A stretch of 64,000 nt of DNA from Patescibacteria group bacterium. Its GTDB lineage: Bacteria > Patescibacteriota > UBA1384 > JBAYJO01. This document shows, piece after piece, positions 13,843 through 50,160 of the stretch (within the stretch, counting starts at the first letter, position 1; every line of letters starts with the position of its first letter). The stretch lies in NCBI GenBank assembly GCA_041665085.1, contig JBAYJO010000003.1, positions 2,131-66,130 on the forward strand, in the 5' to 3' direction. A program made the translations under genes and the position numbers. The notes beneath the pieces were generated by a model that saw only the letters and a program-made list of their open reading frames with translations, had not been told where the DNA came from and searched no databases.

Positions 13843-13850
13843 TATGGCAA

Positions 13851-13878: not shown

Positions 13879-15093
13879 CTAGAATTTGAGGGTTGGGTGG
13901 GTGATTGTGATAATCTCCGGTTTAGGAGAGCTTTTCCTGTTCTTAGGAGGTCGTATCTTGTCGTTCGGAGAAGTTCCAATTGCATCCCGATCCAGTATCT
14001 GATGCTGTCTGATCTTAGTATCCTGTATTGAGACTAAGCGTGCTCCTTTCTTGGAAACTGTGATATTTCGGAAGTTGTTGGTTGCGTATTCTCTGTAGGA
14101 CATGCCATTATACATGGATCCAAGATCAAGTGTGGGATGAGGTACTGCTAGATCATAACACATTGAACCTCGAGAATGGTTCTCTTTGTTGGGCGGAACA
14201 TGGCATTGACAAAGTTCATAGCTTGGGCAAACCAAAGCGCAGTGCCTTTCGGCTGCTAAAGCGCTTGTTTTGGGTCGCCATTGACAGAGTCCGTTTCCAA
14301 TATGCCATGCACCTTGGTTGGAGTCGTAGCAGGACAATCCTGCATTATGGCAAGCAAGCGATAGATCTTCCGATAAGTCTTCGCTTATACCGTCTCTTTT
14401 GTCATAAGTGAAGCTTTTGATCATACCAAATTGGTAGACCAACCTCATGATCCAGATATCCACACAATAGAACGGTATTTGACGGAAGAATTCCCACTCC
14501 CTATCGTTGCCTTTCCATTGGATATCTTGAAGCCAGAGCAAGATTAGTTGAGCGATCTTGTGCTTCATCCCAACAGGTTTATCACGATGCTTGCCAGCGA
14601 GCGTCATTACCTTGATCAATCGGTCTCTGTTTTCCATCGGACTCTGATCAAGATTGAGATTCCGAAGAATCAAAATCCTAGGATCACCATCGTATTTCTC
14701 AAGGAGCTTAAGAGTGTTTCGCCACCAGTTGATTCTCTTTGGATCAGTGTGAGCAAAGGGAATGATTGGGGTTAGAATTCTCCGCAGCTCGTCTTGATAA
14801 CTCTCTGCCAGTCCAGTTGCAGGATTGAGTACTTCAGGGTGATCCAGACATACTGTGCTGCATTGGCTGATAGCTTTTTCAGCTGTTTTGCCAGATCTGT
14901 TGTTCCAGCCGACAAAGAAGAGATACATGGCATGCATTAGGCTGCCATATTCTATTTCTTTGGGTTGATGGCGAATTTCCGGGGGGTGCATATTGGCAAA
15001 ACCATAAGTACGGTTTTCCCATGCATCTGCCCAGCTTTTGCATACAACTGCTGCAGTATCGCAGTCAAACTCGTACTTTTTGATTCTGGCCAC
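13879..15093 (-). CDS. Hypothetical Cys-rich protein of the GC-rich island. There is a possible HhH-like 'FYCVDIWIMRLVYQFGMI' segment. Function unknown.
   Basis: Long ORF at ~48% GC. Likely GTG start at 15093, which lies 9 nt after GAAAGGAGG; the track gives TTG at 15129. Antisense ORFs over it are composition artefacts. Confidence 0.55.
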   Translation of the reverse strand: MARIKKYEFDCDTAAVVCKSWADAWENRTYGFANMHPPEIRHQPKEIEYGSLMHAMYLFFVGWNNRSGKTAEKAISQCSTVCLDHPEVLNPATGLAESYQDELRRILTPIIPFAHTDPKRINWWRNTLKLLEKYDGDPRILILRNLNLDQSPMENRDRLIKVMTLAGKHRDKPVGMKHKIAQLILLWLQDIQWKGNDREWEFFRQIPFYCVDIWIMRLVYQFGMIKSFTYDKRDGISEDLSEDLSLACHNAGLSCYDSNQGAWHIGNGLCQWRPKTSALAAERHCALVCPSYELCQCHVPPNKENHSRGSMCYDLAVPHPTLDLGSMYNGMSYREYATNNFRNITVSKKGARLVSIQDTKIRQHQILDRDAIGTSPNDKIRPPKNRKSSPKPEIITITHPTLKF

Positions 15094-15213
15094 TTGTGGC
15101 ACCCTCCTTTCAGATTGATCAGAATTCAAAAGAGAGCGTTCCTTGCTCCCTCATTTTCAATATAGATTATTTGTAAAAATAAGGCAAATGCAAAGGGGCA
15201 GCTATATTTCAAG

Positions 15214-16518
15214 CTACCCCGAGTTAGTCTGGCCTGTGCCAGCCAATACTGCTGGTTGTGATTCTTCAGCAGTCAGTTCGTCGATAGCGTCAAGTAGACG
15301 CCGAGTTTGTCGAGTCAGTCGTTTGACTTTCTTAGGATCAAGACTGATCAGGTGTCGCGCGAGTTTGGCTAGATGTGGTAGACCAATTCCCTCGAGACTA
15401 TTGATTACCATTTGGACTTGGCCAAGACATGAGTCAAGATGATCTAGTACTTTACCAAGTCTCTTACGGTTTTCAGGGTCGGTCATAGGTGAATCAGCTG
15501 TTGATAATAGGTGTTGTTCGCAGAGCCACTTCATTCCTTCGAATGTTAGTATAATGCCCTGCAAGCCATCGCCTGTCAAGCTCTTGATAGCATTGCGAAA
15601 TGCCTTTTCAGTATCAGCTTGGACAGAATAATCCATTGCTGCAGCTAAGTCCATTTGGACTAGACTGGCGATTCTTTCAGTGATGCGTCTGCGGTACTTT
15701 GGAATCGACAATCGTGGCCCTTGGCTTATGACATAACGCAATTCAGTTTCTAGCGTTTTTTCGCCGAACTTATGATCTGCCAATCGAGCCATCTCTATGG
15801 CAAAACCATACTTCATCTTGCTGTTTTCAACAGCTTTGCGCAAACGATCCGGCAAGCCGCAGAACTTGATCATGCGACTGACTTTGTTAGGGGAGCAACC
15901 AAGTTCTTTGGCCAATTTGGCATACGAGAATTGCGCATCTCTCTTGCGGTACATCTTAAGCATTGATTCGACAAAGTATGCCTCCTCATGTGCCGGTACT
16001 GTACCGTGGATGTTTTCGGAGACTTGAATGCATCTGGCGTAGAAAGGATCAGGATTGACATAGATGTCGCACCACCTGATTGCGCTTTTTGGAAACTGTA
16101 TCTCAAAGCAGTGGCATTCAGATGATTCTTCTCCATCAACCTTGCAACGCGAGCATCCTTTTTCACGGAGTTCGATCATTGCTCGAATTCTACATTCTCC
16201 TGCGATCAAGACATAGTATTTGCCTTTTCGCGCGTAGGATTTGTAGTCATCAAACTCGAGGGTTGCTCCATGAAGGTCTGCCGAGAAAAGCAAATACTCG
16301 ATGAACTTTGCTTTGCTGGTAAAAACAGCCAGCTTAATGTTGGTCAAAAGTCCCATTCGGCCGATATTCTCAGCCAAGTCAGTGATCTTGAGGGGATCAA
16401 AGGTGTGCCTTTCCTGTGGTAAGATAATCACATCTTCGATCGGGATTTCTCGACTTCGCATGAGCGATTCGAACTGTAGTCTCTCAACAACATTGTTTTC
16501 TGGTCCAGACTTTGTCAT
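15214..16518 (-). CDS. ParB/Srx-like nuclease-domain protein with an HTH domain.
   Basis: 'YVLIAGECRIRAM' resembles the ParB 'LIAGERRxRA' box. HTH 'SYAKLAKELGCSPNKVSRMIKF'. ATG at 16518 is preceded by AAAGGGGGTGA. GC ~50%. Confidence 0.65.
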   Translation of the reverse strand: MTKSGPENNVVERLQFESLMRSREIPIEDVIILPQERHTFDPLKITDLAENIGRMGLLTNIKLAVFTSKAKFIEYLLFSADLHGATLEFDDYKSYARKGKYYVLIAGECRIRAMIELREKGCSRCKVDGEESSECHCFEIQFPKSAIRWCDIYVNPDPFYARCIQVSENIHGTVPAHEEAYFVESMLKMYRKRDAQFSYAKLAKELGCSPNKVSRMIKFCGLPDRLRKAVENSKMKYGFAIEMARLADHKFGEKTLETELRYVISQGPRLSIPKYRRRITERIASLVQMDLAAAMDYSVQADTEKAFRNAIKSLTGDGLQGIILTFEGMKWLCEQHLLSTADSPMTDPENRKRLGKVLDHLDSCLGQVQMVINSLEGIGLPHLAKLARHLISLDPKKVKRLTRQTRRLLDAIDELTAEESQPAVLAGTGQTNSG

Positions 16519-16609
16519 TTCATCACCCCCTTTTGTCCAGACTAATTTAATCATTAAAATAAATACGAGACTTGTCAAATGGTACATGTTAATAAATATG
16601 TGGAAAAGT

Positions 16610-16648
16610 ATATATTAAAAAGGTTAAGGCAGGCGCAAGCGCCTGCCT
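16610..16648 (-). terminator. Rho-independent terminator downstream of purA (minus strand).
   Basis: Perfect hairpin 'aggcaggcgc aa gcgcctgcct', followed on the minus strand by TTAACCTTTTTAATATA. Confidence 0.7.
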
Positions 16649-16680
16649 AATAAGTCAATATTCAGTTTTGGGTCAATCCG

Positions 16681-17952
16681 CTATTTGCGGAGGATGATCT
16701 TGTCTCGATGAGCACCGTTGGTCACGATGACGATCGGAACTCCGAGAAGCTGCTCGATGTGATCGATGTAGCTGCGTGCTGCTTCGGGAAGTTCATCCAT
16801 GCTTGTTGCTCCTGTGATGTCTTCCTTCCAGCCGGGTAATGTCTCGTATTCTGGTTCGACTTTGCCTAGCAGATCCGTGGTCGGGTAGCTGGCAAGGATC
16901 GAATCCCGGTACTTGTAAGCGATGCAGATCTTGATCTCATCAAGCTGACTCAAGATATCAAGCTTGGTCATGATGAGACTGGTGAATCCGCCAACCATCA
17001 TAGCGTACTTGAGCGCTACGATATCGAGCCATCCGCATCTTCGTTTCCTGCCGGTAGTAGCGCCGTACTCGTTGCCAGATGTTCGGAGTTGTTCGCCGAT
17101 CTGGTCTCGCAATTCGGTGGGAAAAGGACCAGCACCAACAGCAGTGGTGTATGCTTTCATAACTCCGTAGATCTCGATGATTTCGAGCGGTGAAATTCCG
17201 GCTCCTGCAATAATACCAGCAGGGCTAGGGCAGGAGCTGGTAACGAATGGATAGGCACCTTCATTGAGATCCCGCATAAGGCCAAGTTGTCCTTCGAGCA
17301 AGATCTGCTTGCTGCCAGATACTGCAGTGTGGATCAGCTCAATTGGATTCATGACATGTGGAGCAATGAATCGACATGCTCCTTCAATCTCATCCATGAT
17401 CTGACTCAAGCTAAGCCCACTGTGACCATAGAGCGAGAGTCGATCATTGATCCATTCAAGTTCTTGGCTTATGTGGTTGCTAAATTGCCCAAGGTCAAGG
17501 ACCTCCTCGACTCGGAATCCGCTCCTGTTTGCCTTGTCGGCATAGCACCACGCAATGCCTTGATGGGTCGATCCAATCTCTTTGCCATTGCCCATGCGCC
17601 GCTTTTCATCTAGCATGTCGAAAAGGACGTGATAGGGCATGACGAGATGGGCAAGTGGGGAAATGATGAGCTTGCTGGTGTTGATTCCTACTTTCTGCAA
17701 CTCTCTGATTTCAGTTTCAACACCAACCGGATTGACGACGCAACCATTTCCGATGATGCAGGTGGTCTCGGGGTTGAATATCCCAGATGGGATAGCATGC
17801 AATTTGAAGACTCGGCCGTCGCGTTCAACAGTGTGGCCGGCATTGGCTCCACCTTGACCACGAATAACCATATCAGCTTCAGTGGCAAGATAATCAACCA
17901 CTTTGCCTTTGCCTTCATCTCCCCATTGTGTTCCGGCTACGATATCGACCAT
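16681..17952 (-). CDS. purA: Adenylosuccinate synthetase.
   Basis: 'VAGTQWGDEGKGK', 'GGANAGHTV', 'GTTGRKRRCGWLD' canonical motifs. Start at the internal 'MVDIVAG…'; the track ORF extends 25 codons upstream. GC ~52%, atypical for this window. Confidence 0.9.
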   Translation of the reverse strand: MVDIVAGTQWGDEGKGKVVDYLATEADMVIRGQGGANAGHTVERDGRVFKLHAIPSGIFNPETTCIIGNGCVVNPVGVETEIRELQKVGINTSKLIISPLAHLVMPYHVLFDMLDEKRRMGNGKEIGSTHQGIAWCYADKANRSGFRVEEVLDLGQFSNHISQELEWINDRLSLYGHSGLSLSQIMDEIEGACRFIAPHVMNPIELIHTAVSGSKQILLEGQLGLMRDLNEGAYPFVTSSCPSPAGIIAGAGISPLEIIEIYGVMKAYTTAVGAGPFPTELRDQIGEQLRTSGNEYGATTGRKRRCGWLDIVALKYAMMVGGFTSLIMTKLDILSQLDEIKICIAYKYRDSILASYPTTDLLGKVEPEYETLPGWKEDITGATSMDELPEAARSYIDHIEQLLGVPIVIVTNGAHRDKIILRK

Positions 17953-18087
17953 AGTAGAATTATCCTCTCTTGTGAAGTAGTGTAAGGCAATCGGTTGCTT
18001 ATCTTCACAACCATAAGAATAGTACAATTTAATAAATAAAAAATCAATCTATTTTAAAAAATATTTTAGAACTGTGTCAATTATTGT

Positions 18088-18795
18088 TTAGTCGTTTAGG
18101 CCGTCTTTTAGTTTTATTCGGTTTTTGCAGGCATCAGCAACTTCGGTATTGTGAGTAACAATTAAAAATGTTTGGTTGTTTTCTTTGTTTAATTTTTTAA
18201 GCATCTCAATAATTTCAAGTGAAGTTTTGCTATCAAGCTCGCCTGTTGGTTCGTCTGCTAAAATGACAGCAGGATTATTCATCAATGCACGAGCAATGGC
18301 AACTCGTTGTTGTTGTCCGCCGGATAGTTCATTTGGCTTGTGGTTAATTCTATCTGTAAGTCCAACCAATGTAAGCAGTTCTTTTGCTCGCTCTTTTCTG
18401 ACTTTTGCCTTCATGCCGCCATATTTTCCAGCTAGCATCACATTTTCAATAGCTGTCAAAGAGGGAATTAGATTAAATCCTTGAAAAATAAAACCAATTT
18501 TTTTTGCTCTGATTTTGTGAGCTTTTTTTTCATTGATTTTACTCATATCATCACCATCAATGATCAAAGTGCCTTCATTTGGTTTATCAAGGAGCCCAAG
18601 GATGTGCATCAATGTTGATTTTCCACAGCCTGATGGCCCGACAATAGCAGAAAAATCTCCTTCATTTACTTCAAGATCAATTCCTTTTAATGCCTCGACA
18701 ATATTTGTTTTAGACATTTTATATGTCTTTTTTAAACCAGTTGCTTTAATAATTGTTTTATTTCCACCCAAGGCGGACTTTATTTCATTTTGCAT
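18088..18795 (-). CDS. ABC transporter ATP-binding protein (MacB/LolD-type).
   Basis: Walker A 'GPSGCGKST', signature 'LSGGQQQRVAIARAL', Walker B 'ILADEPTGELD'. Confidence 0.9.
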   Translation of the reverse strand: MQNEIKSALGGNKTIIKATGLKKTYKMSKTNIVEALKGIDLEVNEGDFSAIVGPSGCGKSTLMHILGLLDKPNEGTLIIDGDDMSKINEKKAHKIRAKKIGFIFQGFNLIPSLTAIENVMLAGKYGGMKAKVRKERAKELLTLVGLTDRINHKPNELSGGQQQRVAIARALMNNPAVILADEPTGELDSKTSLEIIEMLKKLNKENNQTFLIVTHNTEVADACKNRIKLKDGLND

Positions 18796-18810
18796 ATTTA
18801 TCCTTTATGT

Positions 18811-18880
18811 TGTCATCCTGAACTTGATTCAGGATCTAATTATTATTTATATAGATTCCGGATCAAGTCCGGAATGACAT
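18811..18880. repeat. Intergenic palindromic repeat (two hairpin modules), same family as the uvrC insert.
   Basis: 'tgtcatcctgaacttgattcaggatc' and 'attccggatcaagtccggaatgacat'. Lies between the permease stop and the ATPase start. Confidence 0.6.
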
Positions 18881-18885
18881 TTGAA

Positions 18886-20172
18886 CTATAATTCTCTAAT
18901 TGCGTCAACAACTTTCATTTTTGAAGCTCGTATAGCAGGAATAATTCCGGCGATTATTCCTATTACAAATGAAAATACTACGACTCCAGCAAGGAAATTT
19001 GGTGAAAGTAAAAATATTTCCGCACCTTTGCTTGCCATTTTTGAATTGATTATTATAATTGCTAGAGCTCCTAGCCCCATGCCAAGCAATCCTCCAAAAA
19101 AGCTGATAACTCCTGCTTCAAGAGTGTATTCTAGAGCAATTGATCTACCTGAAGCGCCAAGAGCTTTTTTGATTCCGATTTCTTTTGTTCTTTCTGAAAT
19201 TGACATAACCATCGTGTTTGTTATTGAAAATATTCCTACGATCAAGGCTAGCATGGCCGCGCCATAAATAATTGCATTCATTGTGGCTGATGCTTTATCA
19301 ATTTGTTCTCCCATTTTTTTTGGAGATAAGACCACAACTTGGTCTTTAAATTGGTTTTTTATTTTTGCTACTATTACTTCCGGGTCGGCGCCATTTTTCC
19401 ATGAAACTGCTCCCATTGTTGAAACATCCTCAACATTAAATGTTTTTGCTTGGATTATTTGATTTCTGGTTTCGGGTGAAAGTTTTGCTAATTCAACATC
19501 TGAAATATTTGATGCTTCAGCAGCACGGTCTTTTAACGATTTTAAAAATGGATTTGAATCAATATACATTTCTCGTGCAACCGGTAATTTCATAAAGACA
19601 TAACTATCCGGACCAGTCATGGTTTTATCGAGTATGCCAACAACATTAAATTCTTTTTCTCGAATTTTAACTTTATCATTCACTTTCCAATTTTTGTCTA
19701 ATGCAACTGTTGAGCCGATCGAAATGTCATTATCTGCGCTATCTTTATTTATTAGTTTTCCTTCTTTCATATCCAGCGTTTCCCAGTTTTTGTTTTTAAA
19801 ATTAGAACTGGTGTCAAGCGAGTTGATTGTTGGAGGTGTGCTCATGCTAATTGAAACTGGTTCATCCGGATTTGGTTCATTAACGGCTAAACTGACCGAT
19901 CCTTCAACAGCTTCAATTCCATCAATTTTAGCGATATTATTTAATGTATCAACAGGCAACATTCCGCTCATTTGGCCGGTAGCAAAGTCGGTTCCTTTTG
20001 GCATAATCGTAATCTGACCGGTAATGTATTTTTTGCCGCCATCAATCATTTTATTTAATTTAAGCGCCATTGACCCCATTACTGTAAATGCAAAAATTCC
20101 AACAACAATTCCGACTATTGTTAAAAATGTGCGAAACTTTCGTCGCCACATATTTCGCAAAATTTCTATCAT
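18886..20172 (-). CDS. ABC transporter permease (FtsX/MacB-type with a large extracytoplasmic domain).
   Basis: N-terminal TM, ~250-aa periplasmic MacB_PCD-like domain, and C-terminal FtsX 4-TM bundle. Confidence 0.8.
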   Translation of the reverse strand: MIEILRNMWRRKFRTFLTIVGIVVGIFAFTVMGSMALKLNKMIDGGKKYITGQITIMPKGTDFATGQMSGMLPVDTLNNIAKIDGIEAVEGSVSLAVNEPNPDEPVSISMSTPPTINSLDTSSNFKNKNWETLDMKEGKLINKDSADNDISIGSTVALDKNWKVNDKVKIREKEFNVVGILDKTMTGPDSYVFMKLPVAREMYIDSNPFLKSLKDRAAEASNISDVELAKLSPETRNQIIQAKTFNVEDVSTMGAVSWKNGADPEVIVAKIKNQFKDQVVVLSPKKMGEQIDKASATMNAIIYGAAMLALIVGIFSITNTMVMSISERTKEIGIKKALGASGRSIALEYTLEAGVISFFGGLLGMGLGALAIIIINSKMASKGAEIFLLSPNFLAGVVVFSFVIGIIAGIIPAIRASKMKVVDAIREL

Positions 20173-20303
20173 CTTACTCCTTATATTTATTTTTATCTTT
20201 ATTGATTATAACAAAAAAATAGATATCAAACAATATTTTTATTAAATAATGATATAATATAAATATATTTATTTTATTTGCCGTTTGGCAAAATGGAGGA
20301 AAA

Positions 20304-21080
20304 ATGGAAGAAAAATTTAAAAGGTTAAAAACCTTGAATGCGTGGGCGTGTTTGCTTCATTTGGTCTCGGGAATATTAATGGTAGCGTTATCAACTAACC
20401 TAGAAGTGCCTATTACGGCCTCTTTTTTGCATTTTGACAGATTTAGTCAGACTCTGGTTCCGCAGATGGAAACATTATTTTCAATTAAACTTGGACTACT
20501 TGTAGCATCATTTTTGTTTATGTCTTCAATCGCTCATTTTTTAATTGCTTTTCCACTTAATAGTTGGTACAACAAAAACCTTAAGAATAATATAAATATT
20601 GCAAGATGGATTGAATATGCTTTTTCGTCATCTGTTATGATGGTTGTTATTTCATTTTTAGTTGGTATGAGCGATATTGCAACTTTAATTGTAATATTTT
20701 TTCTAAATGCAATGATGATACTTTTTGGATGGATGATGGAGCTTCATAACCAAACCCTTCGACAGTGTTCGGAACAGGCCGAAAAGGTAAACTGGACAGC
20801 ATACATTTTTGGTTGTATTGCTGGAATTGGTCCATGGATTGCTGTTGCGATATATTTAGCAAGTCCGGGAGTAGCTGATAATCCACCAACTTTTGTGTAT
20901 TGGATTTTCTTTTCAATTTTTATTTTCTTTAACATTTTTGCTGTAAACCAGATACTTCAATATAAAAAATTCGGTAAATGGAATGATTATCTTTATGGAG
21001 AAAAAGTATATATTATTTTAAGTTTTGTGGCAAAATCGCTTCTTGCGTGGCAAGTTTTTGCTGGTACACTAAGACCATAG
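20304..21080 (+). CDS. Heliorhodopsin (7-TM retinal protein, inverted topology).
   Basis: Full-length similarity to characterised heliorhodopsin 48C12: 'RWIEYAFSSSVM', 'FGWMMELHN', 'FGCIAGIGPWIAV', 'KFGKWNDYLYGEKVYIILSFVAKSLLAWQVFAGTL'. TM7 has the Schiff-base Lys in 'SFVAKS' and TM3 the counterion Glu in 'WIEY'. Confidence 0.9.
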   Translation: MEEKFKRLKTLNAWACLLHLVSGILMVALSTNLEVPITASFLHFDRFSQTLVPQMETLFSIKLGLLVASFLFMSSIAHFLIAFPLNSWYNKNLKNNINIARWIEYAFSSSVMMVVISFLVGMSDIATLIVIFFLNAMMILFGWMMELHNQTLRQCSEQAEKVNWTAYIFGCIAGIGPWIAVAIYLASPGVADNPPTFVYWIFFSIFIFFNIFAVNQILQYKKFGKWNDYLYGEKVYIILSFVAKSLLAWQVFAGTLRP

Positions 21081-21085
21081 GAAGT

Positions 21086-21454
21086 ATGAAAAAGATAAAC
21101 AAAAATTTAATTGCTTCGTGTGGAATGAACTGCGGAGTTTGTAGAGCATATTTGCGAGAGAAAAATAAATGTCCGGGCTGCCAAAAAGGTCCGACTATGA
21201 TTTCGTGCCAGCGTTGCAAACTTATGAACTGTCCTGATAGAAAGGGTGAATTTTGTTTTGAATGTGAGAAATTTCCATGTGATAGGCTTAATCATTTAGA
21301 TAAACGATATCGCGAAAAATACGGCATGAGTGAAATTGAAAATCTTGAAAATATTAGAGATAATGGGATTGATGAATTTATGAAAAGCCAGCGAAAAAAA
21401 TACCAATCAGAAAAAGGAACTTTTTGCGTGCATGATAAAAAATATTATAAATAA
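21086..21454 (+). CDS. Cys-rich DUF3795-family protein, translationally coupled to heliorhodopsin.
   Basis: CGMNCGVC…CPGCQ…CQRC…CPDR…CFEC…C pattern. ATG is 5 nt after the heliorhodopsin stop, preceded by AGGAAG. Confidence 0.65.
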   Translation: MKKINKNLIASCGMNCGVCRAYLREKNKCPGCQKGPTMISCQRCKLMNCPDRKGEFCFECEKFPCDRLNHLDKRYREKYGMSEIENLENIRDNGIDEFMKSQRKKYQSEKGTFCVHDKKYYK

Positions 21455-21466
21455 AAAGGAGAAAAA

Positions 21467-21790
21467 ATGGATCATAATAATATTACTACAGCACTCGAAT
21501 TGCCAGATTTAAAAATTGAAAAAAATTTAGGTGTTGTAAAAGGGATTACTGTTAGATCAAGATCATTATTTGGAACTATTGGAGCAGCATTTCAGACACT
21601 AGCAGGTGGAAATATTTCACTTTTAACAACACTTTGTGAAAAAACTCGAGCCGAAGCTTATGAATTAATGATTAAGCACGCAGAAGAAATTGGGGCAAAT
21701 GCTGTTGTGGCGGTAAAATATGACGCTACTGAAGTGATGAGTGGCGTGACTGAAGTATTGTGCTACGGCACTGCCGTTGTGGTGAAATAA
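21467..21790 (+). CDS. YbjQ/UPF0145 (DUF74) family protein.
   Basis: 107 aa, 'GVVKGITVRSRSLFGTIGAAFQTLAGG…ANAVVAVKYD' typical of YbjQ. Confidence 0.7.
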   Translation: MDHNNITTALELPDLKIEKNLGVVKGITVRSRSLFGTIGAAFQTLAGGNISLLTTLCEKTRAEAYELMIKHAEEIGANAVVAVKYDATEVMSGVTEVLCYGTAVVVK

Positions 21791-21802
21791 TAAAAAAAGG
21801 AG

Positions 21803-22597
21803 TTGATGATGAATCTTGTAGACAAGATAATTTTGGTTACGGGTGCTGGAAGCGGCATTGGCAGAGAGCTTACTTTGTCTTTATTAAAAAAAGGTACAAA
21901 AGTTATAGCTGTTGATATTGATAATGAATCTTTAGAAGAAACTAAAAAACTGGCAGGGTTAAATAGTGAAAATATTACAACTCAAATTATAAATATCGCC
22001 GATAAAAAAGCAGTTGAAAATTTGCCCGAAAAGATCAAAAATATTGATGGTATTGTTAATAATGCTGGAATAATTCAACCTTTTGTCAAAATAAATGATC
22101 TTGATTATGAATCAATTGAAAGAGTTATGAATATTAATTTTTACGGTACACTTTATATGACCAAGGCGTTTTTGCCACTTTTATTAAAACGTCCAGAAGC
22201 GTATATTGTAAATATTTCCAGTATGGGAGGATTTTTGCCAGTGCCTGGTCAAAGCATTTATGGCGCATCAAAAGCGGCAGTAAAACTTATGACAGAGGGA
22301 TTGTATGCGGAGTTGGCGGACACTAATGTTCATGTTACGGTTGTTTTTCCGGGAGCTACTAAAACAAATATTACTGTAAATTCTGGTTTAGATCAGCCAA
22401 AAGGCGGTTCGGAAAATAATTTTCCAATGTTGCCGGCGAAAAACGCAGCAAATTTAATTGTTAAAGGTATTGAAAACAATAAATTTCAAGTATTTTTGGG
22501 TAAAGACTGCAAATCAATGAACTTTTTATACCGTCTGAATCCTCGCTTTGCCACCAATTTTATTGCCAAGCAAATGCGTTCTTTGTTGACCAAATAA
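21803..22597 (+). CDS. Short-chain dehydrogenase/reductase (SDR).
   Basis: 'VTGAGSGIGRE' Rossmann motif, 'NNAG', catalytic 'YGASKAA'. Confidence 0.85.
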   Translation: MMMNLVDKIILVTGAGSGIGRELTLSLLKKGTKVIAVDIDNESLEETKKLAGLNSENITTQIINIADKKAVENLPEKIKNIDGIVNNAGIIQPFVKINDLDYESIERVMNINFYGTLYMTKAFLPLLLKRPEAYIVNISSMGGFLPVPGQSIYGASKAAVKLMTEGLYAELADTNVHVTVVFPGATKTNITVNSGLDQPKGGSENNFPMLPAKNAANLIVKGIENNKFQVFLGKDCKSMNFLYRLNPRFATNFIAKQMRSLLTK

Positions 22598-22612
22598 TTC
22601 AAATCTTATACT

Positions 22613-22657
22613 AAAATTGTCCCGACGAATAATGTCGGGACAATTTTAGTTAGAGAG
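22613..22657. terminator. Bidirectional intrinsic terminator (15-bp perfect stem).
   Basis: 'aaaattgtcccgacg aataa tgtcgggacaatttt', flanked by A- and T-runs. Confidence 0.75.
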
Positions 22658-22659
22658 TT

Positions 22660-22869
22660 CTACTTTCCGATCAAACCTGCTAAATGAAGCAGGTAGAGAA
22701 ATACTCCTACACAAACAAGTCCTGGTGCCCAAGCGAGCATTAGCCCAACTGGCGAGCCCCATTCATCCCAATGCGATCTGCGATACAATGGATAATCCAC
22801 ATTTCTGGTGCTTCTCAAAACCGATTCTTCGATTTCTTTGTTGAATCGCTTTGTTTCTTGTTTGTCCAT
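22660..22869 (-). CDS. Hypothetical small membrane protein (69 aa), GC-rich. Coding status is uncertain.
   Basis: Single ORF in a locally GC-rich patch with a C-terminal hydrophobic stretch. No recognisable family. Confidence 0.3.
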   Translation of the reverse strand: MDKQETKRFNKEIEESVLRSTRNVDYPLYRRSHWDEWGSPVGLMLAWAPGLVCVGVFLYLLHLAGLIGK

Positions 22870-23275
22870 AATGTGTACCTCTTTTAGTTCATAAGATGAC
22901 TATCCGATCGACCCTTCGACAAGCTCACCATTCGATCCCGAGCAACTCATGGTCGAGGGATGGCAAGCCGAATTTTAGGATAGTTTTTGGGGCCCTTGAG
23001 TTTTCTCGTTTGGACTCCTTTAATTGCTTCAAGGGTAAAGCAGGAGTATCTAATCCAACGAGTTTATTATAATAAATTCAGGCAAAAAAACAACACCACT
23101 CTTGCTTGTCATTCCTTAATTTTACGCGAAGGAGAAACTTTTCCTTAATATTTTTGGCACTATAATAGAGGTGGTAAATACCATTTACTCTATGAGCTGA
23201 ACGACCTTGAGGTAGACGGCCTATTTGTTCTATAAGATGGAAAGACTGGGCGGAAGAAATAAATATATATTCATA

Positions 23276-23304
23276 TTGACATCAATAATGTATGGGTATA
23301 TATT
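23276..23304 (+). promoter_or_regulatory. Sigma70-type promoter (TTGACA-17-TATATT) upstream of the DUF5320 gene.
   Basis: Exact consensus -35 and a near-consensus -10 with a 17-nt spacer, ~40 nt upstream of the RBS AAAGGAGGTGA. Confidence 0.55.
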
Positions 23305-23346
23305 TATAGTATAAGGTAAAATTATCACCGAAAGGAGGTGAGAAAT

Positions 23347-23586
23347 ATGCCAGGATTTGATCAAACAGGTCCTCAAGGACGAGGTCCAATGACAGGAAGA
23401 GGGTTGGGACCATGCGGGAGAGGTATGGGCTGGGGCAGAGGTTACGGACAAGGTTGTGGGAGATTCGCAGGACGATCCTATCTCTCAAAAAGAGAAGAAG
23501 TGGAAGATTTAGAAGAAGAAGCCAAAGATCTTGAATCAGATCTTAAAGCTTTAAAAGAAAGAATTGCTGAGATCAAGGGAGAATAA
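23347..23586 (+). CDS. DUF5320-family protein (Gly/Arg-rich N-terminus, C-terminal coiled coil).
   Basis: 'MPGFDQTGPQGRGPMTGRGLGPCGRGMGWGRGYG' followed by an acidic coiled coil. ATG after AAAGGAGGTGA. This family typically accompanies NifB/NifX-like and MinD-FeS genes. Confidence 0.7.
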   Translation: MPGFDQTGPQGRGPMTGRGLGPCGRGMGWGRGYGQGCGRFAGRSYLSKREEVEDLEEEAKDLESDLKALKERIAEIKGE

Positions 23587-23686
23587 AAAAGCCGCTCCGG
23601 CGATCCAGTCTTTCTGGACGCTGGGGCGACCCTGCATTTTCAATTTTACTGAAAAATAAATATTTATCAATAAGAGAGGGAGTAAA

Positions 23687-24418
23687 ATGAGATTGGAAAA
23701 TAAAGTAGCGATTGTAACGGGTGCAGCATCCGGTATCGGCAAAGCGATCGCTGAAACATTTATTAAAGAAGGGGCCAAGGTTGTCTATTCCGATATTAAT
23801 GCGCCGGATAATTTTGAAACAACCGACAGAACATTATTTATAAAATGCGATGTTTCAAATTCAAAAGATGTGGATGCGTTGATTGGTGGAACAATCGATC
23901 ATTTTGGTAAAATTGACATTATGGTAAATAATGCCGGAATCGGCGGTTTGGGCGGTATTCTTGATGTTACTGATGAGAATTGGGATAAAACAATCGGGAT
24001 AAATCTTTCCGGCGTGATGTACGGCATGAGAGCAGTAGCCAATAAGATGAAGGAGTCGAACATCAAGGGCGCTATCATTAATATGAGTTCTATCTTGGGA
24101 AGTGTTGGTTTTAATGGAGCTATTGCATACTGCGCGGCAAAAGGCGGAATTGTTCAACTAACGCATGCCGGTTCTCTTGATCTTGCTCAATATAATATTA
24201 GAGTAAACGCAATTGCCCCGGGATTTATCCAAACCAATATGACAAAAGATATTTTGAAAGATGAACAATTTAATCAATTAGTAACCGGATCAACACCGCT
24301 GGGGCATGTTGGTGAGCCAGATGACATTGCCAATGCTGCTGTTTATTTGGCATCAGACGAGGCCAAATATGTCACAGGTAACATTTTATATGTTGACGGT
24401 GGGTGGACAGCTAAATAG
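23687..24418 (+). CDS. SDR-family oxidoreductase (FabG-like 3-oxoacyl-ACP reductase type).
   Basis: 'VTGAASGIGKA', 'NNAGI', 'YCAAKGG', 'YVTGNILYVDGGWTA'. Confidence 0.85.
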   Translation: MRLENKVAIVTGAASGIGKAIAETFIKEGAKVVYSDINAPDNFETTDRTLFIKCDVSNSKDVDALIGGTIDHFGKIDIMVNNAGIGGLGGILDVTDENWDKTIGINLSGVMYGMRAVANKMKESNIKGAIINMSSILGSVGFNGAIAYCAAKGGIVQLTHAGSLDLAQYNIRVNAIAPGFIQTNMTKDILKDEQFNQLVTGSTPLGHVGEPDDIANAAVYLASDEAKYVTGNILYVDGGWTAK

Positions 24419-24428
24419 AAAGGAAGAA

Positions 24429-24767
24429 ATGAAAATAGCAATCGGAATAAAAGACAAAGAGAGCAAAGAAATAAATGAGATGTTTGCTAGATCTTCGTAT
24501 TTTTTATTTATAGAAGTTGAAAATAAAGAAATTGTCAATGAAAAAATTGAAGAAAATACATTTACCGATCAAATGAGCGGCGCTGGGATTGCCGTAATTG
24601 AACATTTGGCAAAAAAGGAAGTCGAGACAATAATTTGCGCTAATCTTGGACCACGTGCGCTTGATCTTTGTAAACAACTTCAAATTAAAGCCTACAAAAC
24701 AAATGATTCTACCTATGAAAAAACTATAGAATTATTTTTGAAAAATGATTTAGTTGAGATCAAATAA
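24429..24767 (+). CDS. NifX/NifB-C-terminal-like (dinitrogenase FeMo-cofactor-binding fold) protein.
   Basis: 112 aa, 'MKIAIGIKDK…MFARSSYFLFIEV…GAGIAVIEHLAKKEVETIICANLGPRALDL'. Start placed after RBS AGGAAG; the track ORF runs on from the upstream gene. Confidence 0.7.
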   Translation: MKIAIGIKDKESKEINEMFARSSYFLFIEVENKEIVNEKIEENTFTDQMSGAGIAVIEHLAKKEVETIICANLGPRALDLCKQLQIKAYKTNDSTYEKTIELFLKNDLVEIK

Positions 24768-24768
24768 T

Positions 24769-25116
24769 ATGAAAATAGCAATACCAACAAACGACAAAAA
24801 AACTGTTGCAGACCATTTTGGACGTTGCCAAACATACTTGTGTTTTGACGAAAAAGGCAATAGTTTGGCCGAGATTAACAATACTTCCGAGCATATGGGC
24901 GGACAAGGATTGCCTCCGGAATTACTAAAAAATAACGGTGTGGATGTTCTTTTGTGCAAAGATTTAGGACCCTACGCTATCTCACTTTGCAGTGAAAATA
25001 ACATAAAGGTTTACAAACATTCTGAAGCAGAATTGATAAATAGCCTTTTTAATTTATGGCAGTCTAATAAATTAAAAGAAATCGCTATCGGTGAAGGCTG
25101 TGAAAGCCATCAATAA
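24769..25116 (+). CDS. NifX/NifB-like FeMo-co-binding-fold protein (second paralog).
   Basis: 'MKIAIPTNDKKTVADHFGRCQTYLCFD…GVDVLLCKDLGPYAISL', with the characteristic HFG motif. Confidence 0.7.
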   Translation: MKIAIPTNDKKTVADHFGRCQTYLCFDEKGNSLAEINNTSEHMGGQGLPPELLKNNGVDVLLCKDLGPYAISLCSENNIKVYKHSEAELINSLFNLWQSNKLKEIAIGEGCESHQ

Positions 25117-25125
25117 GGAGAAAAT

Positions 25126-25995
25126 ATGAAAATTGCAGTCGCCGGAGGAAAAGGTGGAACCGGAAAATCTACTATCGCGACAATAATTGCGGCAGAATTG
25201 GGCGTAAAAGCAAAAACTATGCTCATTGATTGCGATGTAGAATGTCCCAATGATCATTTGCTTTTGAATACTAAGCTTAAATTCTATAAAGATGTTTTTC
25301 AAGTTATTCCTAAATGGGATCAAGACATCTGCAACAAATGTGGCAAATGCGCTGAAATTTGTAAACAAGATGCTATAATTTTTGTCGAAGGCAAATTTCC
25401 CGCGTTTTTAGCGGAAAGATGCATTGGTTGTAAGGCATGCTTAGCTGCCTGTCCGCTCCATGCAATAAGCACTGATCAAAGGCCTGTTGGAAAAATTTAC
25501 CTGTCGGATAGCAAAAAATATAATATTACTTTAGTCACCGGAGAGTTAAATATTGGAGATTTGGCTTCCGGAGAAATTGTAGCCGAATTACGAAAAGAGT
25601 CAAAAAAAATTAATCTTGATAAAAAATGCGAGCATATTGTTACTGATGCGGCCGCCGGAATCGGTTGTCCTGTTATCGCTTCAATATTGAACAATGATTA
25701 TATGATCGCGGTTACCGAGCCAACTCCTTCTGCTTTTAGCGACTTAAAGAGAGTAATCAGCTTGGCAACTCATTTTAATATTCCCATTGGAATTGTAATA
25801 AATAAGTATGATATAAATGAAAAATTTATTAAGGAAATTGAAAAATTTGCCGATTGCTATAAAATTAAAATAGTCGGAAAAATCCCTTACGATAAAAATC
25901 TGATAAAATTAAATGTGGAAGGAAAAATAAGCGACAAGAGCAAATATAAAGAAATTATTAAAAAATTATTAAGCAATATTGAAGAAACCATATGA
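25126..25995 (+). CDS. MinD/ParA-superfamily P-loop ATPase with a 2x[4Fe-4S] ferredoxin insert (CooC/Mrp-like).
   Basis: 'AGGKGGTGKST' deviant Walker A and two CxxCxxCxxxCP motifs (CNKCGKCAEIC, CIGCKACLAACP). Confidence 0.8.
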   Translation: MKIAVAGGKGGTGKSTIATIIAAELGVKAKTMLIDCDVECPNDHLLLNTKLKFYKDVFQVIPKWDQDICNKCGKCAEICKQDAIIFVEGKFPAFLAERCIGCKACLAACPLHAISTDQRPVGKIYLSDSKKYNITLVTGELNIGDLASGEIVAELRKESKKINLDKKCEHIVTDAAAGIGCPVIASILNNDYMIAVTEPTPSAFSDLKRVISLATHFNIPIGIVINKYDINEKFIKEIEKFADCYKIKIVGKIPYDKNLIKLNVEGKISDKSKYKEIIKKLLSNIEETI

Positions 25996-27263
25996 AAATG
26001 AACGCCAAAATAATTTCATTAATCTCAGCCATTACCAATATTATATTGTCGGCGGCAAAATTGATTGCCGGTTTTGCTTTTGGTAGCATTACATTGATTG
26101 CATCAGGTATAGATTCATCCCTAGACATTGTGTCTTCTCTTATAACTTTCTTTGGAATTAAAATCTCTGAAAAACCTGCCGACAAAGAACATCCTTATGG
26201 TCATGCAAGATATGAAAGTTTGGCTAGCTATACCGTAGTAATGCTTATTTTTGCTTCGACGCTTTGGATTATTTATGAAGCTTTCATTGAATTATTCAAA
26301 GGCGGTTACAATGTGCAGTATTCAATAATTTCTATAATAGTAATTATTGCTGCCATAATTATTACAGAAGTGCTAGCACGGCTTAAGTACTACTTTGGCA
26401 ATAAGTTTTCCTCGCTTTCTCTTGTTGCGGACGCACAACATTCAAGAGCCGATGTTCTATCGCAGATTGCCGTTTTAACCGGTCTTTATATAACAAAATA
26501 TTTTTCTGTCGCAGACAATATTTTAGCAATTCTAATTGCTTTTTATGTTCTCTGGAGTACATATAATCTTGCTAAGGAATCGGTTGATTCGCTAGTCGAT
26601 AAGGCAAATAATGAACTTGAAAAAAAGATTGATGATTGGCTTAAAACCAATGATTATCATTTTTCCGATATAAAGACTCGAAAAATAGGATCTCAAAATT
26701 TTGCTGAAATATTCTTAGTATTGGAAAAAAAATTAGAAACAGAAGAAATAACTGAATATCTTCGAAAACTCGAGCATCAGATATTAAACAGTTTTAACGA
26801 ATTGACTCAAGTCACTTTGTCCATTGATTCGCATAATATTTCGGACTCTTCGACCAGAAATTGGCTTGGCGGAAGAATGCATTTTCGATTTGCCAATTCT
26901 AATATGAAAGGCACAGCAATCAGCCCCAAAGAAACAGATGCTTACCGTATTGTAATTCCGTATCAAGATGGCAAAATATCTTCAGATTTTGGTTCTAAAG
27001 AGTACATGCTAATCGACCGTTCCTCTAAAAAAGAAGGGTTTAAGAAAGAAATTACAGCCAATCCTTTTTTTGACAATGGAGAAAATTCAGGTCACGGAGT
27101 TCGTTTTATAAAATCCGTCGATGCGGATGAAATCATTGTTAGATCGATCGGTCACGGAGCATTGAACAATTTAAAGTCACAAAATGTTAAGATTACTATC
27201 CTTAAGAAGGATATTAGTTTAGATGAATTAGAAAGAGAAAAGTATGAAACCGAGAAAATGTAG
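25992..27263 (+). CDS. Cation diffusion facilitator (CDF) transporter fused to a C-terminal NifX-like domain.
   Basis: N-terminal 6-TM CDF core ('HPYGHARYESLAS', 'HSRADVLSQ'). C-terminal ~110 aa 'RIVIPYQDGKISSDFGSKEYMLID…GHGVRFIKSVDADEIIVRSIGHGALNNL' resembles the upstream NifX-like proteins. Confidence 0.7.
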   Translation: MKMNAKIISLISAITNIILSAAKLIAGFAFGSITLIASGIDSSLDIVSSLITFFGIKISEKPADKEHPYGHARYESLASYTVVMLIFASTLWIIYEAFIELFKGGYNVQYSIISIIVIIAAIIITEVLARLKYYFGNKFSSLSLVADAQHSRADVLSQIAVLTGLYITKYFSVADNILAILIAFYVLWSTYNLAKESVDSLVDKANNELEKKIDDWLKTNDYHFSDIKTRKIGSQNFAEIFLVLEKKLETEEITEYLRKLEHQILNSFNELTQVTLSIDSHNISDSSTRNWLGGRMHFRFANSNMKGTAISPKETDAYRIVIPYQDGKISSDFGSKEYMLIDRSSKKEGFKKEITANPFFDNGENSGHGVRFIKSVDADEIIVRSIGHGALNNLKSQNVKITILKKDISLDELEREKYETEKM

Positions 27264-27528
27264 AAAAATCGAATTTGAACCAAGCGTTTTTTATTTTAAA
27301 CCGCAGGGAGTCCCGCTTCGTTTTTTGGATGAGGTTGATCTTTCAGCTGAAGAATTAGAAGCAATGAGGCTAAAAAATATTGAGGATATGGATCAGATCG
27401 AAGCAGCAGAAAAAATGCATACTTCGCAGAGTACCTTCCAACGAATCTTGTCTTCCGCATACAAAAAGATTTCCATTGCCTTGATAGAAGGCAAAGCAAT
27501 AAAAATTCATGAAATTGAGCGTCCATAA
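27244..27528 (+). CDS. DUF134/UPF0251 predicted DNA-binding protein.
   Basis: 'KPRKCRKIEFEPSVFYFKPQGVP…LSAEELEAMRLKNIEDMDQIEAAEKMHTSQSTFQRIL…ALIEGKAIKI' matches the family hallmark. Confidence 0.7.
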   Translation: MKPRKCRKIEFEPSVFYFKPQGVPLRFLDEVDLSAEELEAMRLKNIEDMDQIEAAEKMHTSQSTFQRILSSAYKKISIALIEGKAIKIHEIERP

Positions 27529-27588
27529 AACATTTTGCGTGTCAATAAACCAATGTCTTGTTAAAAAATAGCTTTAGCTTTAGCTTTA

Positions 27589-28354
27589 GGGGACGCTTCA
27601 CTTTCACTCAATGCTTTAGCGATAACTTAAATTTTGGTATAGTATAGTTATGCCACGACAACCAAGATTTCTTCCACCGGACAACTACTATCATATAATG
27701 AACCGCGGTAATAACGGCCAGCAGATTTTTACTTGTGATGAAGATTATCAATATTACCTCGACAAATTATTAGAACTTAAATATGAACATCCATTTAATC
27801 TCTCTCACTATTGTCTGATGCCTACTCATGTTCATTTTTTACTAAAAATAATCAAAGAAACTGATTTTTCCATCTTTTCAAAACGGTTGAACTTAAGTTA
27901 CGCTATTTATTTTAAAAGAAACTATGGCTCTATAGGCCATTTCTGGCAGGGTAGGTTTAAAAGCCAGTTAATAAGCAATGATATCTATCTTATGCAGTGC
28001 GGAAAATATATTGAATTAAATCCAGTCAGAGCAGACATGATAACAATGCCAGAAGACTATTCCTGGTCAAGCTATCAATATTATGCCTTTGGTAAAAAGA
28101 ACAGTTTGATTACCGAAGATATTTTTTACAATGAATTTGGAAATGATCAAAAAGAAAGGCAAAAAAATTATTCCCAATTTATGATTGATGAGGCTATTGC
28201 GACTACGATGAGTAGTAAGAAGCTAGCTATCGGAGCTAAAGATTTCGTGTATAATATAAATAGAAAAAATAAATACCACTTAGAAAATAAAGATGCTTCC
28301 TACCATTCAAAAAATACTTATCGCTAAAGTATTGAGTGAAAGTGAAGCGTCCCC
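27589..28354 (+). mobile_element. REP-associated tyrosine transposase (RAYT)/IS200-like element bounded by 33-bp perfect inverted repeats.
   Basis: Left inverted repeat 27589-27621 'ggggacgcttcactttcactcaatgctttagcg' and right inverted repeat 28322-28354 (its exact reverse complement). Short tandem repeats (tagcttt)x3 and (ccccgaaag)x2 lie just outside. Confidence 0.75.
27650..28327 (+). CDS. Y1 HUH tyrosine transposase (RAYT / TnpA-REP family).
   Basis: 'YHIMNRGNNGQQIF…HYCLMPTHVHFLLK…' has the HxH (HVH) motif, and there is a downstream Tyr region ('YSWSSYQYY'). Confidence 0.75.
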   Translation: MPRQPRFLPPDNYYHIMNRGNNGQQIFTCDEDYQYYLDKLLELKYEHPFNLSHYCLMPTHVHFLLKIIKETDFSIFSKRLNLSYAIYFKRNYGSIGHFWQGRFKSQLISNDIYLMQCGKYIELNPVRADMITMPEDYSWSSYQYYAFGKKNSLITEDIFYNEFGNDQKERQKNYSQFMIDEAIATTMSSKKLAIGAKDFVYNINRKNKYHLENKDASYHSKNTYR

Positions 28355-28397
28355 GAAAGTCCCCGAAAGACTATGATTTAGAGGGCGGGTATAATAC

Positions 28398-29141
28398 ATG
28401 GACGGTGCAATGAGCAGTATTAATATTTTAATTTTAGCTTTTCTTTCCGGATTGGCTACATTTTTCGGTGTTTACCTTGGAGACAAAAGCAATAAAAGCA
28501 CTGCAAATATTGCTTTCGGCACTAGTTTTGCGGCTGGTATTATGATTTTAATATCATTTTTTGAGCTTATTCCGGAAGCTTACCATAGTGCTGGTGCAAG
28601 GTCTTTATTTTGGGTAGTTTTAGGTTTATTGGCAGTTTGGTTGATAAATAAAATCTTGCCGCATATTCACTCAATAAAAGGGATTGAAAATTGTGAACAA
28701 AAATGTTCTCTAAAATTATCTTATCTTTTAGCGATCGGCTTAATTCTTCATGACTTTCCGGAAGGATTTGCCATCCCAAGCTCATTTACAAGTTCTTCAG
28801 AGCTAGGATTGCTTCTAGTAATTGCTACATTTATTCACAATATTCCAGAAGGATATGTTTTAACTGTTGCCTCGGCTAAATACAAGAGCAAAGGGTTCTT
28901 TTATAAATTGGCACTATTTTCAGCAGTTTCGACACTGTTAGGGGCTACTCTAGGCGTAATTTTAATTCATTACTTTAGTTTTCTTAACCCAGTCTTTCTT
29001 TCGATTGCCGCAGGAGCGATGATATTTATATCTATTCACGAACTCATTCCAGCGAGTTTAAAGAATGGCAGGAAACTGACTTTTCTTCTCGGAACTAGTA
29101 CTTCGCTGGCTGTTTACTTCGGACTTAATTTAATATTTTAA
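28398..29141 (+). CDS. ZIP-family metal (Zn/Fe) transporter.
   Basis: 'HDFPEGFAI' and 'HNIPEGYVL' metal-binding TM motifs, ~8 TM. Confidence 0.85.
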   Translation: MDGAMSSINILILAFLSGLATFFGVYLGDKSNKSTANIAFGTSFAAGIMILISFFELIPEAYHSAGARSLFWVVLGLLAVWLINKILPHIHSIKGIENCEQKCSLKLSYLLAIGLILHDFPEGFAIPSSFTSSSELGLLLVIATFIHNIPEGYVLTVASAKYKSKGFFYKLALFSAVSTLLGATLGVILIHYFSFLNPVFLSIAAGAMIFISIHELIPASLKNGRKLTFLLGTSTSLAVYFGLNLIF

Positions 29142-50125: not shown

Positions 50126-50160
50126 GATTTTTTCACATTTTACTAAATTAAGGAGGGTAT

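Follow-up and report, generated by a model that had tools for sequence, protein, structure and literature searches.

A patescibacterial heliorhodopsin heads a compact four-gene run whose order is not conserved among related heliorhodopsin loci

How heliorhodopsins (HeRs) function is understood in part, and their partners, among them glutamine synthetase, photolyase and ATP-binding cassette (ABC) exporters, have mainly been reached through conserved gene neighbours. The locus considered here lies in a stretch of 64,000 nucleotides (nt), referred to below as the window, from contig JBAYJO010000003.1 (assembly GCA_041665085.1) of a Patescibacteria group bacterium, a host of the Candidate Phyla Radiation (CPR). 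In it a HeR gene is followed closely by genes for a cysteine-rich DUF3795 protein, a YbjQ-family protein and a short-chain dehydrogenase/reductase (SDR; the one in question is termed SDR1), an arrangement which an initial annotation, made from the sequence alone, took as a possible pointer to the HeR partner or pathway. We report that the HeR is genuine and that the neighbourhood is not conserved in 141 HeR loci.

Several described systems bear comparison with this locus. A survey of the HeRs of CPR bacteria places SFVAK among the three commonest motifs of their seventh transmembrane helix (TM7) (PMC9166423, Chiriac et al. 2022); rhodopsin-bearing CPR bacteria are without blh, and their retinal is thought to come from other organisms (PMC9296517). 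HeR loci have been screened for same-strand genes within 10 bp, and nearby adh_short proteins were proposed to be retinol dehydrogenases (bioRxiv 10.1101/2021.02.01.429150, Bulzu et al.); the same work describes the Znf-HeR variants ntv1-3 and icl3v1 and RINGv genes beside HeR, and cites zinc binding by TaHeR. Regulation of an ABC exporter by a HeR has been demonstrated experimentally for OcHeR and OmrDE, a heterodimeric multidrug-resistance ABC transporter (PMC11109279, Cho et al. 2024).

The HeR of the window is a genuine heliorhodopsin of a CPR bacterium, already annotated by NCBI: the entry 'MAG: heliorhodopsin HeR [Patescibacteria group bacterium]' matches it at 100% identity, in keeping with the host group first proposed for this DNA. 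Public names of the same kind are attached to the SDR and to DUF3795 homologs. It had been read as an end-to-end HeR, with a search of family profiles suggested as the check, and that search places it far above both relevant cut-offs: PF18761 is covered from 1 to 242 of its 242 positions (E=1.1e-96, 323 bits, cut-off 26.7), and the NCBIfam equivalog NF038020, 'heliorhodopsin HeR', scores 333.8 bits (cut-off 100). The closest solved structure, that of TaHeR from Thermoplasmatales archaeon SG8-52-1 (PDB 6is6; see also 7u55 and 7clj), aligns with residues 4-258 at 53.5% identity (E=1.2e-71). In this alignment E104 stands in the column of the TaHeR counterion E108, a column pinned by the E108D mutant chain 7clj, and the Schiff-base lysine is K244, the motif S240-F-V-A-K244 corresponding to TaHeR S234...K238; the TM3 glutamate and TM7 lysine recognised at the outset are thereby located.

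The likeness to TaHeR thus comprises the counterion glutamate, the SxxxK motif and two histidines (H19 and H78, aligned with TaHeR H23 and H82), and may extend to an inverted topology: a hydropathy scan, crude and with some helices merged, places 13 lysines and arginines in the N-terminus and every other loop but 2 on the opposite side, a charge pattern that fits an N-terminus inside. Unlike TaHeR, the window protein has seven additional residues in the TM4-5 loop and three in the TM5-6 loop, carries N96 and Y231 where TaHeR has H100 and H225, and belongs to a bacterial (CPR), not an archaeal, host. HeR 48C12 (6su3, 6uh3), the founding heliorhodopsin, from freshwater Actinobacteria, is of the same family (E=8e-56 over residues 4-258) but is further from the window HeR than TaHeR is, and its host phylum is another. 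From the surveyed CPR HeRs (PMC9166423; Bulzu et al. 2021), with which it shares host group, SFVAK motif and an assumed dependence on external retinal (PMC9296517), the window HeR differs in nothing substantive; it adds one further locus, with idiosyncratic neighbours. As initially noted, no retinal-biosynthesis gene is evident: the families concerned gave no match in the 50 window ORFs (open reading frames) scanned, out of approximately 53 non-spurious ones that reach 110 aa, the scan extending to 56.9 kb.

All four ORFs are present on the + strand in the order first described (Table). The HeR stop codon, TAG at 21078-21080, is separated by the 5 nt originally reported from the DUF3795 ATG at 21086, and the DUF3795 ribosome-binding site, AGGAAG, overlaps that stop; the later gaps, between DUF3795 and YbjQ and between YbjQ and SDR1, are of 12 nt each. 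Public gene calls (Logan/ENA, P0121) begin the DUF3795 protein at M14, shortening it to 109 aa and removing the invariant residues A10 and C12; because homologs span the full 122 aa, these two residues included, the longer form and the 5-nt gap stand. The HeR ATG is preceded, 7 nt ahead, by a GGAGG ribosome-binding site, and the AT-rich region between HeR and the divergent permease gene is presumed to be the promoter region of both; promoter-like matches within it show no excess over shuffled expectation. At the other end, 15 bases past the SDR1 stop and between the convergent SDR1 and 69-aa genes, lies a hairpin that is probably a bidirectional intrinsic terminator closing the HeR-DUF3795-YbjQ-SDR1 series. 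Between HeR and SDR1, consensus-scan matches to promoters and terminators do not rise above shuffled expectation. Since the four genes abut, no terminator is found within them and a strong hairpin follows SDR1, they are probably co-transcribed as one unit.

Conservation of this neighbourhood was examined in HeR loci drawn from species-representative genomes (80), from JGI metagenomes (80) and, for the four closest HeRs, from Logan assemblies. Removal of duplicates left 141 distinct loci, their HeRs 55-81% identical to that of the window, with 1.61 Mb of flanking sequence; the sequence after HeR extends for at least 500 bp in 126 of them and for at least 2.5 kb in 94. They are mostly from Patescibacteria (Berkelbacteria, Kerfeldbacteria, 'Saccharibacteria', WS6), with some from Chloroflexota and Actinomycetota. 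The window proteins were compared by phmmer with every ORF of at least 40 aa in these loci.

A DUF3795 gene directly follows HeR in 0 of the 126 loci, and lies within 10 kb of it in 1 of the 141 (L029, 6.5 kb off); for a gene present once in a genome of about 1 Mb, one match in 1.61 Mb is about the chance level. YbjQ is near HeR in none of the 141, and an SDR1 ortholog is present in just one, L083, the SDR found in L028 being a different one. Behind the four closest HeRs read from Logan assemblies (77-81% identity), the next genes encode a GyrI-like protein, a Fic protein, BipA (convergent) and an unknown protein (also convergent). When all window genes within 12 kb either side of HeR were used as queries, almost no ortholog-level match was obtained in any HeR locus. 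Nor is the 5-nt gap special, because tight same-strand packing behind HeR is common and involves unrelated gene families: in about 15 of 77 related loci a same-strand gene begins within 11 nt of the HeR stop or overlaps it, and the clusters to which these genes belong are unrelated. Conservation across HeR loci, which the initial annotation had named as the check on its proposal and lack of which it had named as the counter-evidence, was thus not found.

The orthologs were also followed away from HeR. Three HeR-bearing contigs (one of 199 kb, confirmed; two presumed, of 687 kb and 972 kb) carry DUF3795 orthologs more than 10 kb from HeR, the distance on the 199-kb contig being about 87 kb. The closest DUF3795 on a long contig (73% identity, the second closest overall) begins 2 nt after a YbjQ ortholog, the order opposite to that in the window, and no HeR is found within 6.5 kb upstream or 10 kb downstream of this pair. 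Orthologs of SDR1, at 64-73% identity, occur widely in Patescibacteria; those in L172-L176 have no HeR nearby, and in GCA_964406145.1 HeR and the SDR1 ortholog are on separate contigs. The closest SDR1 ortholog on a long contig stands in the order DUF134-SDR1-Cyt-b5 (L175), a few kb from a DEAD-helicase gene and BipA, HeR being absent. With the genes rarely or never beside HeR and the DUF3795 and SDR1 orthologs unlinked to it in other HeR-bearing genomes, the idea that the neighbourhood points to a HeR partner or pathway is not upheld.

Table. Features of the 64,000-nt window at and around the heliorhodopsin locus (positions counted from the first letter of the window)
Feature	Position	Strand	Basis or remark
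HeR, 258 aa	20304-21080	+	Pfam, NCBIfam, TaHeR alignment
DUF3795 protein, 122 aa	21086-21454	+	PF12675, 33 bits, cut-off 22.6
YbjQ_1 (UPF0145), 107 aa	21467-21790	+	PF01906, E=1.5e-27, 96.6 bits, cut-off 23, profile 3-103/103
SDR1, classical SDR, 262-264 aa	21803-22597	+	PF00106 adh_short, E=1.4e-50
Intergenic region, 131 nt, AT-rich (GC 0.29), divergent between MacB-type permease (-) and HeR (+)	20173-20303		sequence
Hairpin, 17 bp, bordered by an A-run and a T-run	22610-22650		fold -30 kcal/mol, z=-8.85 against shuffles
69-aa protein, one C-terminal hydrophobic segment, motif HWDEWGSPVG	22660-22869	-	orthologs in HeR loci
Conserved non-coding leader of the 69-aa gene, ~120-155 nt	22904-23059	-	alignments, 4 copies
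MacB-type ABC exporter pair, divergent from HeR	18088-20172	-	Pfam, NCBIfam
FtsX/MacB_PCD permease	18886-20172	-	
MacB-type ATPase	18088-18795	-	
IS200-type transposase gene	27650-28327		
ZIP zinc transporter	28398-29141		after the IS200-type transposase gene
Cyt-b5-like heme/steroid-binding domain protein, 209 aa	29997-30626		also L012 9346-9963, L175 10826-11446
uvrC	157-1794		
uvrA	6592-9405		
uvrB	9407-11383		

What does recur near the closest HeRs is the gene of the 69-aa membrane protein: convergent with the HeR unit in the window, it recurs more often than any other close neighbour among the nearest HeR relatives. In L084 (77% HeR identity) and L171 (73%) gene and leader follow HeR closely, in convergent orientation; in L121 they are 8 kb off. 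The family is rare: a search of 1.84 billion proteins at E<=1e-3 gave 17 representatives, of which about 11 are small (57-76 aa). The leader, downstream of a TATAAT box, has counterparts at 10594-10712 of L084 (-), 1926-2042 of L121 (+) and 11352-11470 of L171 (-), and the copies share invariant blocks, CCCTTG...TCAAGGGCCCCAA...GCCA...GGTCGA. Two interleaved helices can be drawn in it, ACUCCU/AGGAGU and CCCUUGR/UCAAGGG, the first of which appears in L121 in the compensatory form ACUACU/AGUAGU; the hairpin that follows these helices varies in sequence among loci with its pairing retained. The pair count, 98% paired with one compensatory change, is from four copies and is not significant. The leader could possibly form an H-type pseudoknot, and it is possible that it acts as an unknown cis-regulatory RNA. 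Rfam gave no match at E<=1 over 22600-23400 save a sub-threshold chance microRNA, and nhmmer searches with the leader over 2.26 Mb of collected sequence returned just the four known copies.

We consider it likely, at a probability of roughly three in four, that this is an ordinary CPR heliorhodopsin working on exogenous retinal, behind which, in this genome only, stands a co-oriented and probably co-transcribed trio of genes, and that the arrangement identifies no partner or pathway. The HeR, whose function is by homology taken to be that of characterised heliorhodopsins, would take up all-trans retinal from outside and bind it at K244 with E104 as counterion; lying in the membrane with its N-terminus inside, it would serve as a light sensor with a slow cycle, modulating other proteins and pumping no ions. 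The DUF3795-YbjQ-SDR1 trio would have come to lie behind it by a lineage-specific juxtaposition in a compact, rearrangement-prone region, apparently by insertion between HeR and the 69-aa gene with its leader, an older convergent neighbour. The insertion is suggested by the position of that gene directly behind HeR in L084 and L171, the trio lying between the two in the window, and the region is judged dynamic because of a GC-rich island at 13.6-18.0 kb and the IS200-type transposase gene. The gene order being lineage-specific, adjacency says little about the partner or pathway of the HeR. The exact order HeR-DUF3795-YbjQ-SDR is new, yet it is not a conserved feature; CPR HeRs, retinal scavenging, SDRs near HeR and Cys-rich HeR modules are all published ideas.

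The three proteins behind HeR can be characterised to different degrees. The initial annotation rightly described the DUF3795 protein as Cys-rich, but its figure of about nine conserved cysteines was too low: there are 12, of which 11 (C12, 16, 19, 29, 32, 44, 49, 57, 60, 65 and 114) are invariant in 60 homologs, as is H116. The pattern, C12x3C16x2C19, C29xxC32, C41xxC44, C49, C57xxC60, C65 and C114xH116, divides into a Cys-rich N-terminal module, made of CX3CX2C, three CX2C pairs and further cysteines, and a helical C-terminus with C114 and H116. An AlphaFold2 model based on the 60-sequence alignment (pLDDT 95.7, pTM 0.87) has a mostly irregular Cys-rich N-terminal half and three C-terminal helices, a confidently predicted fold without a solved relative. 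The protein is presumed, from its cysteine pattern, to have several metal sites, either Fe-S clusters or Zn. Its homologs number 1168 at E<=1e-5, many of them in Patescibacteria; the literature on DUF3795 offers a passing mention and no functional data. The YbjQ protein matches its family profile over nearly its whole length, every NCBIfam equivalog match being under its cut-off.

SDR1 may begin at TTG 21803 (264 aa), ATG 21806 or ATG 21809, and its translation contains the classical motifs TGAGSGIG, NNAG, S140 and Y153GASK157 (YxxxK). An Asp after strand beta-2 is a general marker of NAD(H) use in SDRs, and Asp38, at the end of beta-2, suggests an NAD(H) preference. The best 25 of its 220 NCBIfam matches are all under cut-off, with names that are generic or non-retinoid, and among them is no characterised retinol or retinal dehydrogenase model; the nearest solved relatives in the PDB are of FabG and hydroxyacyl-CoA dehydrogenase types. 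A specific name for SDR1 was therefore dropped, both searches having yielded generic SDR relatives only.

SDR1 also belongs to a set of genes, with those for a Cyt-b5-like protein, DUF134 and BipA, that recur near HeR or near each other in differing combinations. The order SDR1-HeR-BipA is found in L083 and ABC-MacB-Cyt-b5-HeR in L012 and L112, and BipA is within five genes of HeR in seven loci. The Cyt-b5-like ortholog lies directly upstream of HeR in L012 and L112 and directly downstream of the SDR1 ortholog in L175 and L176, and in L096, L132 and the window a Cyt-b5-like protein is encoded no more than 9 kb from HeR; SDR1 and Cyt-b5 may be the real conserved pair. We interpret these low-frequency recurrences, of the 69-aa gene, of SDR1, Cyt-b5, DUF134 and BipA, and of MacB pairs, as residual synteny in a rearranging region.

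Certain points nevertheless tell against a merely fortuitous neighbourhood. L083 has an SDR1 ortholog (66% identity) 33 nt ahead of its HeR, which is 80% identical to that of the window; metagenomic contigs are often short, so that the absence of the window's neighbours holds for 94-126 loci, according to the distance considered; and the four-gene unit is probably co-expressed in this organism, whatever its history. Non-conservation lowers the odds of a functional link, and such a link within this lineage is possible. Published precedents exist too: Cys-rich modules are fused to HeR or encoded beside it (bioRxiv 10.1101/2021.02.01.429150), and SDRs are among the ten frequent operon partners of HeR, as are ABC transporters (PMC11109279). 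The HeR operon groups of the latter study resemble the window in having an SDR in the predicted operon and an ABC exporter adjacent; in the window, however, the SDR is three genes off, the ABC pair is MacB-type and divergent, not OmrDE, and neither is conserved among relatives.

These precedents lead to several alternatives to an uninformative arrangement. SDR1 might serve HeR as a retinol dehydrogenase that uses NAD+ to turn scavenged retinol into retinal, and be co-expressed with it for that reason, possibly with the Cyt-b5-like protein as a lipid-binding companion. The shared predicted unit, the L083 arrangement, an Asp38 fitting NAD(H) and the oxidative direction, the Cyt-b5-like ortholog adjoining HeR in two loci and SDR1 in two others, and the lack of retinal-synthesis genes among the scanned window ORFs are consistent with such retinoid salvage, as are the retinol-dehydrogenase proposal for adh_short proteins near HeR (bioRxiv 10.1101/2021.02.01.429150) and the 'SDR group' of HeR operons (PMC11109279). 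We nevertheless think it unlikely: an SDR1 ortholog is found in only one of the 141 loci and these orthologs, common in Patescibacteria, mostly have no adjacent HeR; of two HeR-bearing genomes, one has the ortholog more than 10 kb from HeR and the other has it on another contig, more than 20 kb away; neither the below-cut-off matches among the best 25 of 220 in NCBIfam nor the FabG and hydroxyacyl-CoA dehydrogenase relatives point to retinoids; and residual synteny explains the co-occurrence of SDR1, Cyt-b5, BipA and DUF134 equally well. A role for the DUF3795 protein as a metal or Fe-S partner of HeR, relaying a light, redox or metal signal with YbjQ as accessory, would make it a separate counterpart of the Cys-rich modules present at the N-terminus or in a loop of some HeRs. 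It would accord with the 5-nt gap and the ribosome-binding site overlapping the HeR stop, with 11 invariant cysteines and a histidine in a confident compact predicted fold, with the metal-related genes downstream (CDF, ZIP, NifX-like, MinD-like 4Fe-4S ATPase), and with the Cys-rich HeR fusions, RINGv neighbours and TaHeR zinc binding already described (bioRxiv 10.1101/2021.02.01.429150). The resemblance to those Znf-HeR and RINGv systems is that a Cys-rich, probably metal-binding module is physically tied to the HeR gene; the differences are that the window module is a separate DUF3795 protein, likened to them by Cys-richness and position alone, and that its orthologs elsewhere are unlinked to HeR. 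With the adjacency in 0 of 126 loci (1 of 141 within 10 kb), the orthologs unlinked in three HeR-bearing genomes (in one at 87 kb), the closest DUF3795-YbjQ pair on a long contig lacking a nearby HeR, and no signal peptide or TM segment in the protein sequence to tie it to the membrane, such a partnership seems highly improbable.

The divergent exporter raises another prospect, that HeR controls the MacB-type pair by light, as OcHeR does OmrDE. HeR and the permease share the divergent intergenic region; an ortholog-level ABC pair is found 15 nt upstream of HeR on the same strand in L108 and 1.7 kb downstream in L109; 8 distinct loci encode a MacB-type permease no more than 3 kb from HeR; and regulation of an ABC transporter by a HeR has its experimental precedent (PMC11109279). 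The enrichment near HeR is slight and not significant, though, at 8 in 0.64 Mb (1.25 per 100 kb) as against 5 in 0.97 Mb (0.52 per 100 kb) in the 3-10 kb zone (binomial p=0.096); CPR genomes hold several such transporters, two of them within 10 kb in L087; and most HeR loci have no MacB pair nearby. The classes differ besides: a heterodimeric multidrug-resistance ABC transporter such as OmrDE implies fused half-transporters, whereas the window pair is an FtsX/MacB_PCD permease with a separate ATPase. We rate light control of this exporter very unlikely, and much the same holds for the more inclusive proposal of a lineage-specific photoreceptor module made up of all four genes. In it SDR1 would make retinal for HeR from scavenged retinol, while the DUF3795 protein, as a soluble metalloprotein and perhaps together with YbjQ, would bind HeR on its cytoplasmic side and relay a light-dependent redox or metal signal, a separately encoded counterpart of the Cys-rich extensions that some archaeal heliorhodopsins carry as fusions. 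The ordinary heliorhodopsin with a lineage-specific arrangement behind it is thus the reading we retain.

Other recurrent neighbours were noted in the HeR loci. A family without Pfam assignment, of about 180-200 aa and secreted or lipoprotein-like, is encoded on the same strand at positions -1 to -5 of HeR in nine loci (L015, L016, L027, L030, L031, L032, L041, L054, L070), and another, about 250 aa long and with a TM segment at its N-terminus, on the same strand at one or two genes either side of HeR in six (L027, L031, L034, L039, L040, L041). Both are absent from the window, and in that CPR subclade they are better candidates for conserved neighbours than any window gene. In two Patescibacteria loci, L027 (10769-11101) and L041, a pyrimidine-dimer DNA glycosylase gene (Pyr_excise, E=3e-25) begins 3 nt after the HeR stop, an arrangement that echoes published links of HeR with photolyase and UV repair. 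The window's own uvr genes, 9-20 kb upstream of HeR, were considered in the same light and set aside: the UvrB matches in 11 HeR loci are weak helicase matches of about 30 bits.

The remainder of the window is varied. The GC-rich island beside the ABC pair (13600-18000) comprises 4.4 kb at 43-51% GC, against about 33% for the genome, and is probably foreign DNA adjoining the ABC-HeR region. In it lie the adenylosuccinate synthetase gene (16681-18027) and two ORFs, 416 and 457 aa long, that match no Pfam family; one of the two has a weak match to a ParB-type helix-turn-helix. Downstream, 23338-27528 is a cluster typical of anaerobes, with DUF5320, a second SDR, two NifX-like proteins (Nitro_FeMo-Co), a MinD/ParA-type ATPase with 4Fe-4S motifs, a CDF cation-efflux protein and DUF134; with DUF3795 and YbjQ, the genes from 23338 to 29141 make a metal-flavoured stretch. 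A DUF134-DUF5320 fusion gene is convergent right after HeR in L077. Type IV pilus genes, for T2SSE ATPases, T2SSF, a prepilin peptidase and several N_methyl pilins, occupy 47.5-57 kb, and the cluster may reach to about 60 kb (47519-60600, the scanned ORFs ending at 56.9 kb); a 23S-rRNA-IVP family gene lies within it at 51284-51646.

A conserved HeR-DUF3795-YbjQ-SDR module in CPR bacteria would have been a useful lead for HeR signalling and for a protein family without known function or solved fold. Tight spacing in compact CPR genomes is by itself no evidence of functional coupling, and the module not being conserved, the locus is a further example of the published 'promiscuous' HeR contexts and reveals no new pathway. 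The leader of the 69-aa gene, with its possible pseudoknot, and the predicted fold of the DUF3795 protein may prove of more value than the lead from which the analysis began.

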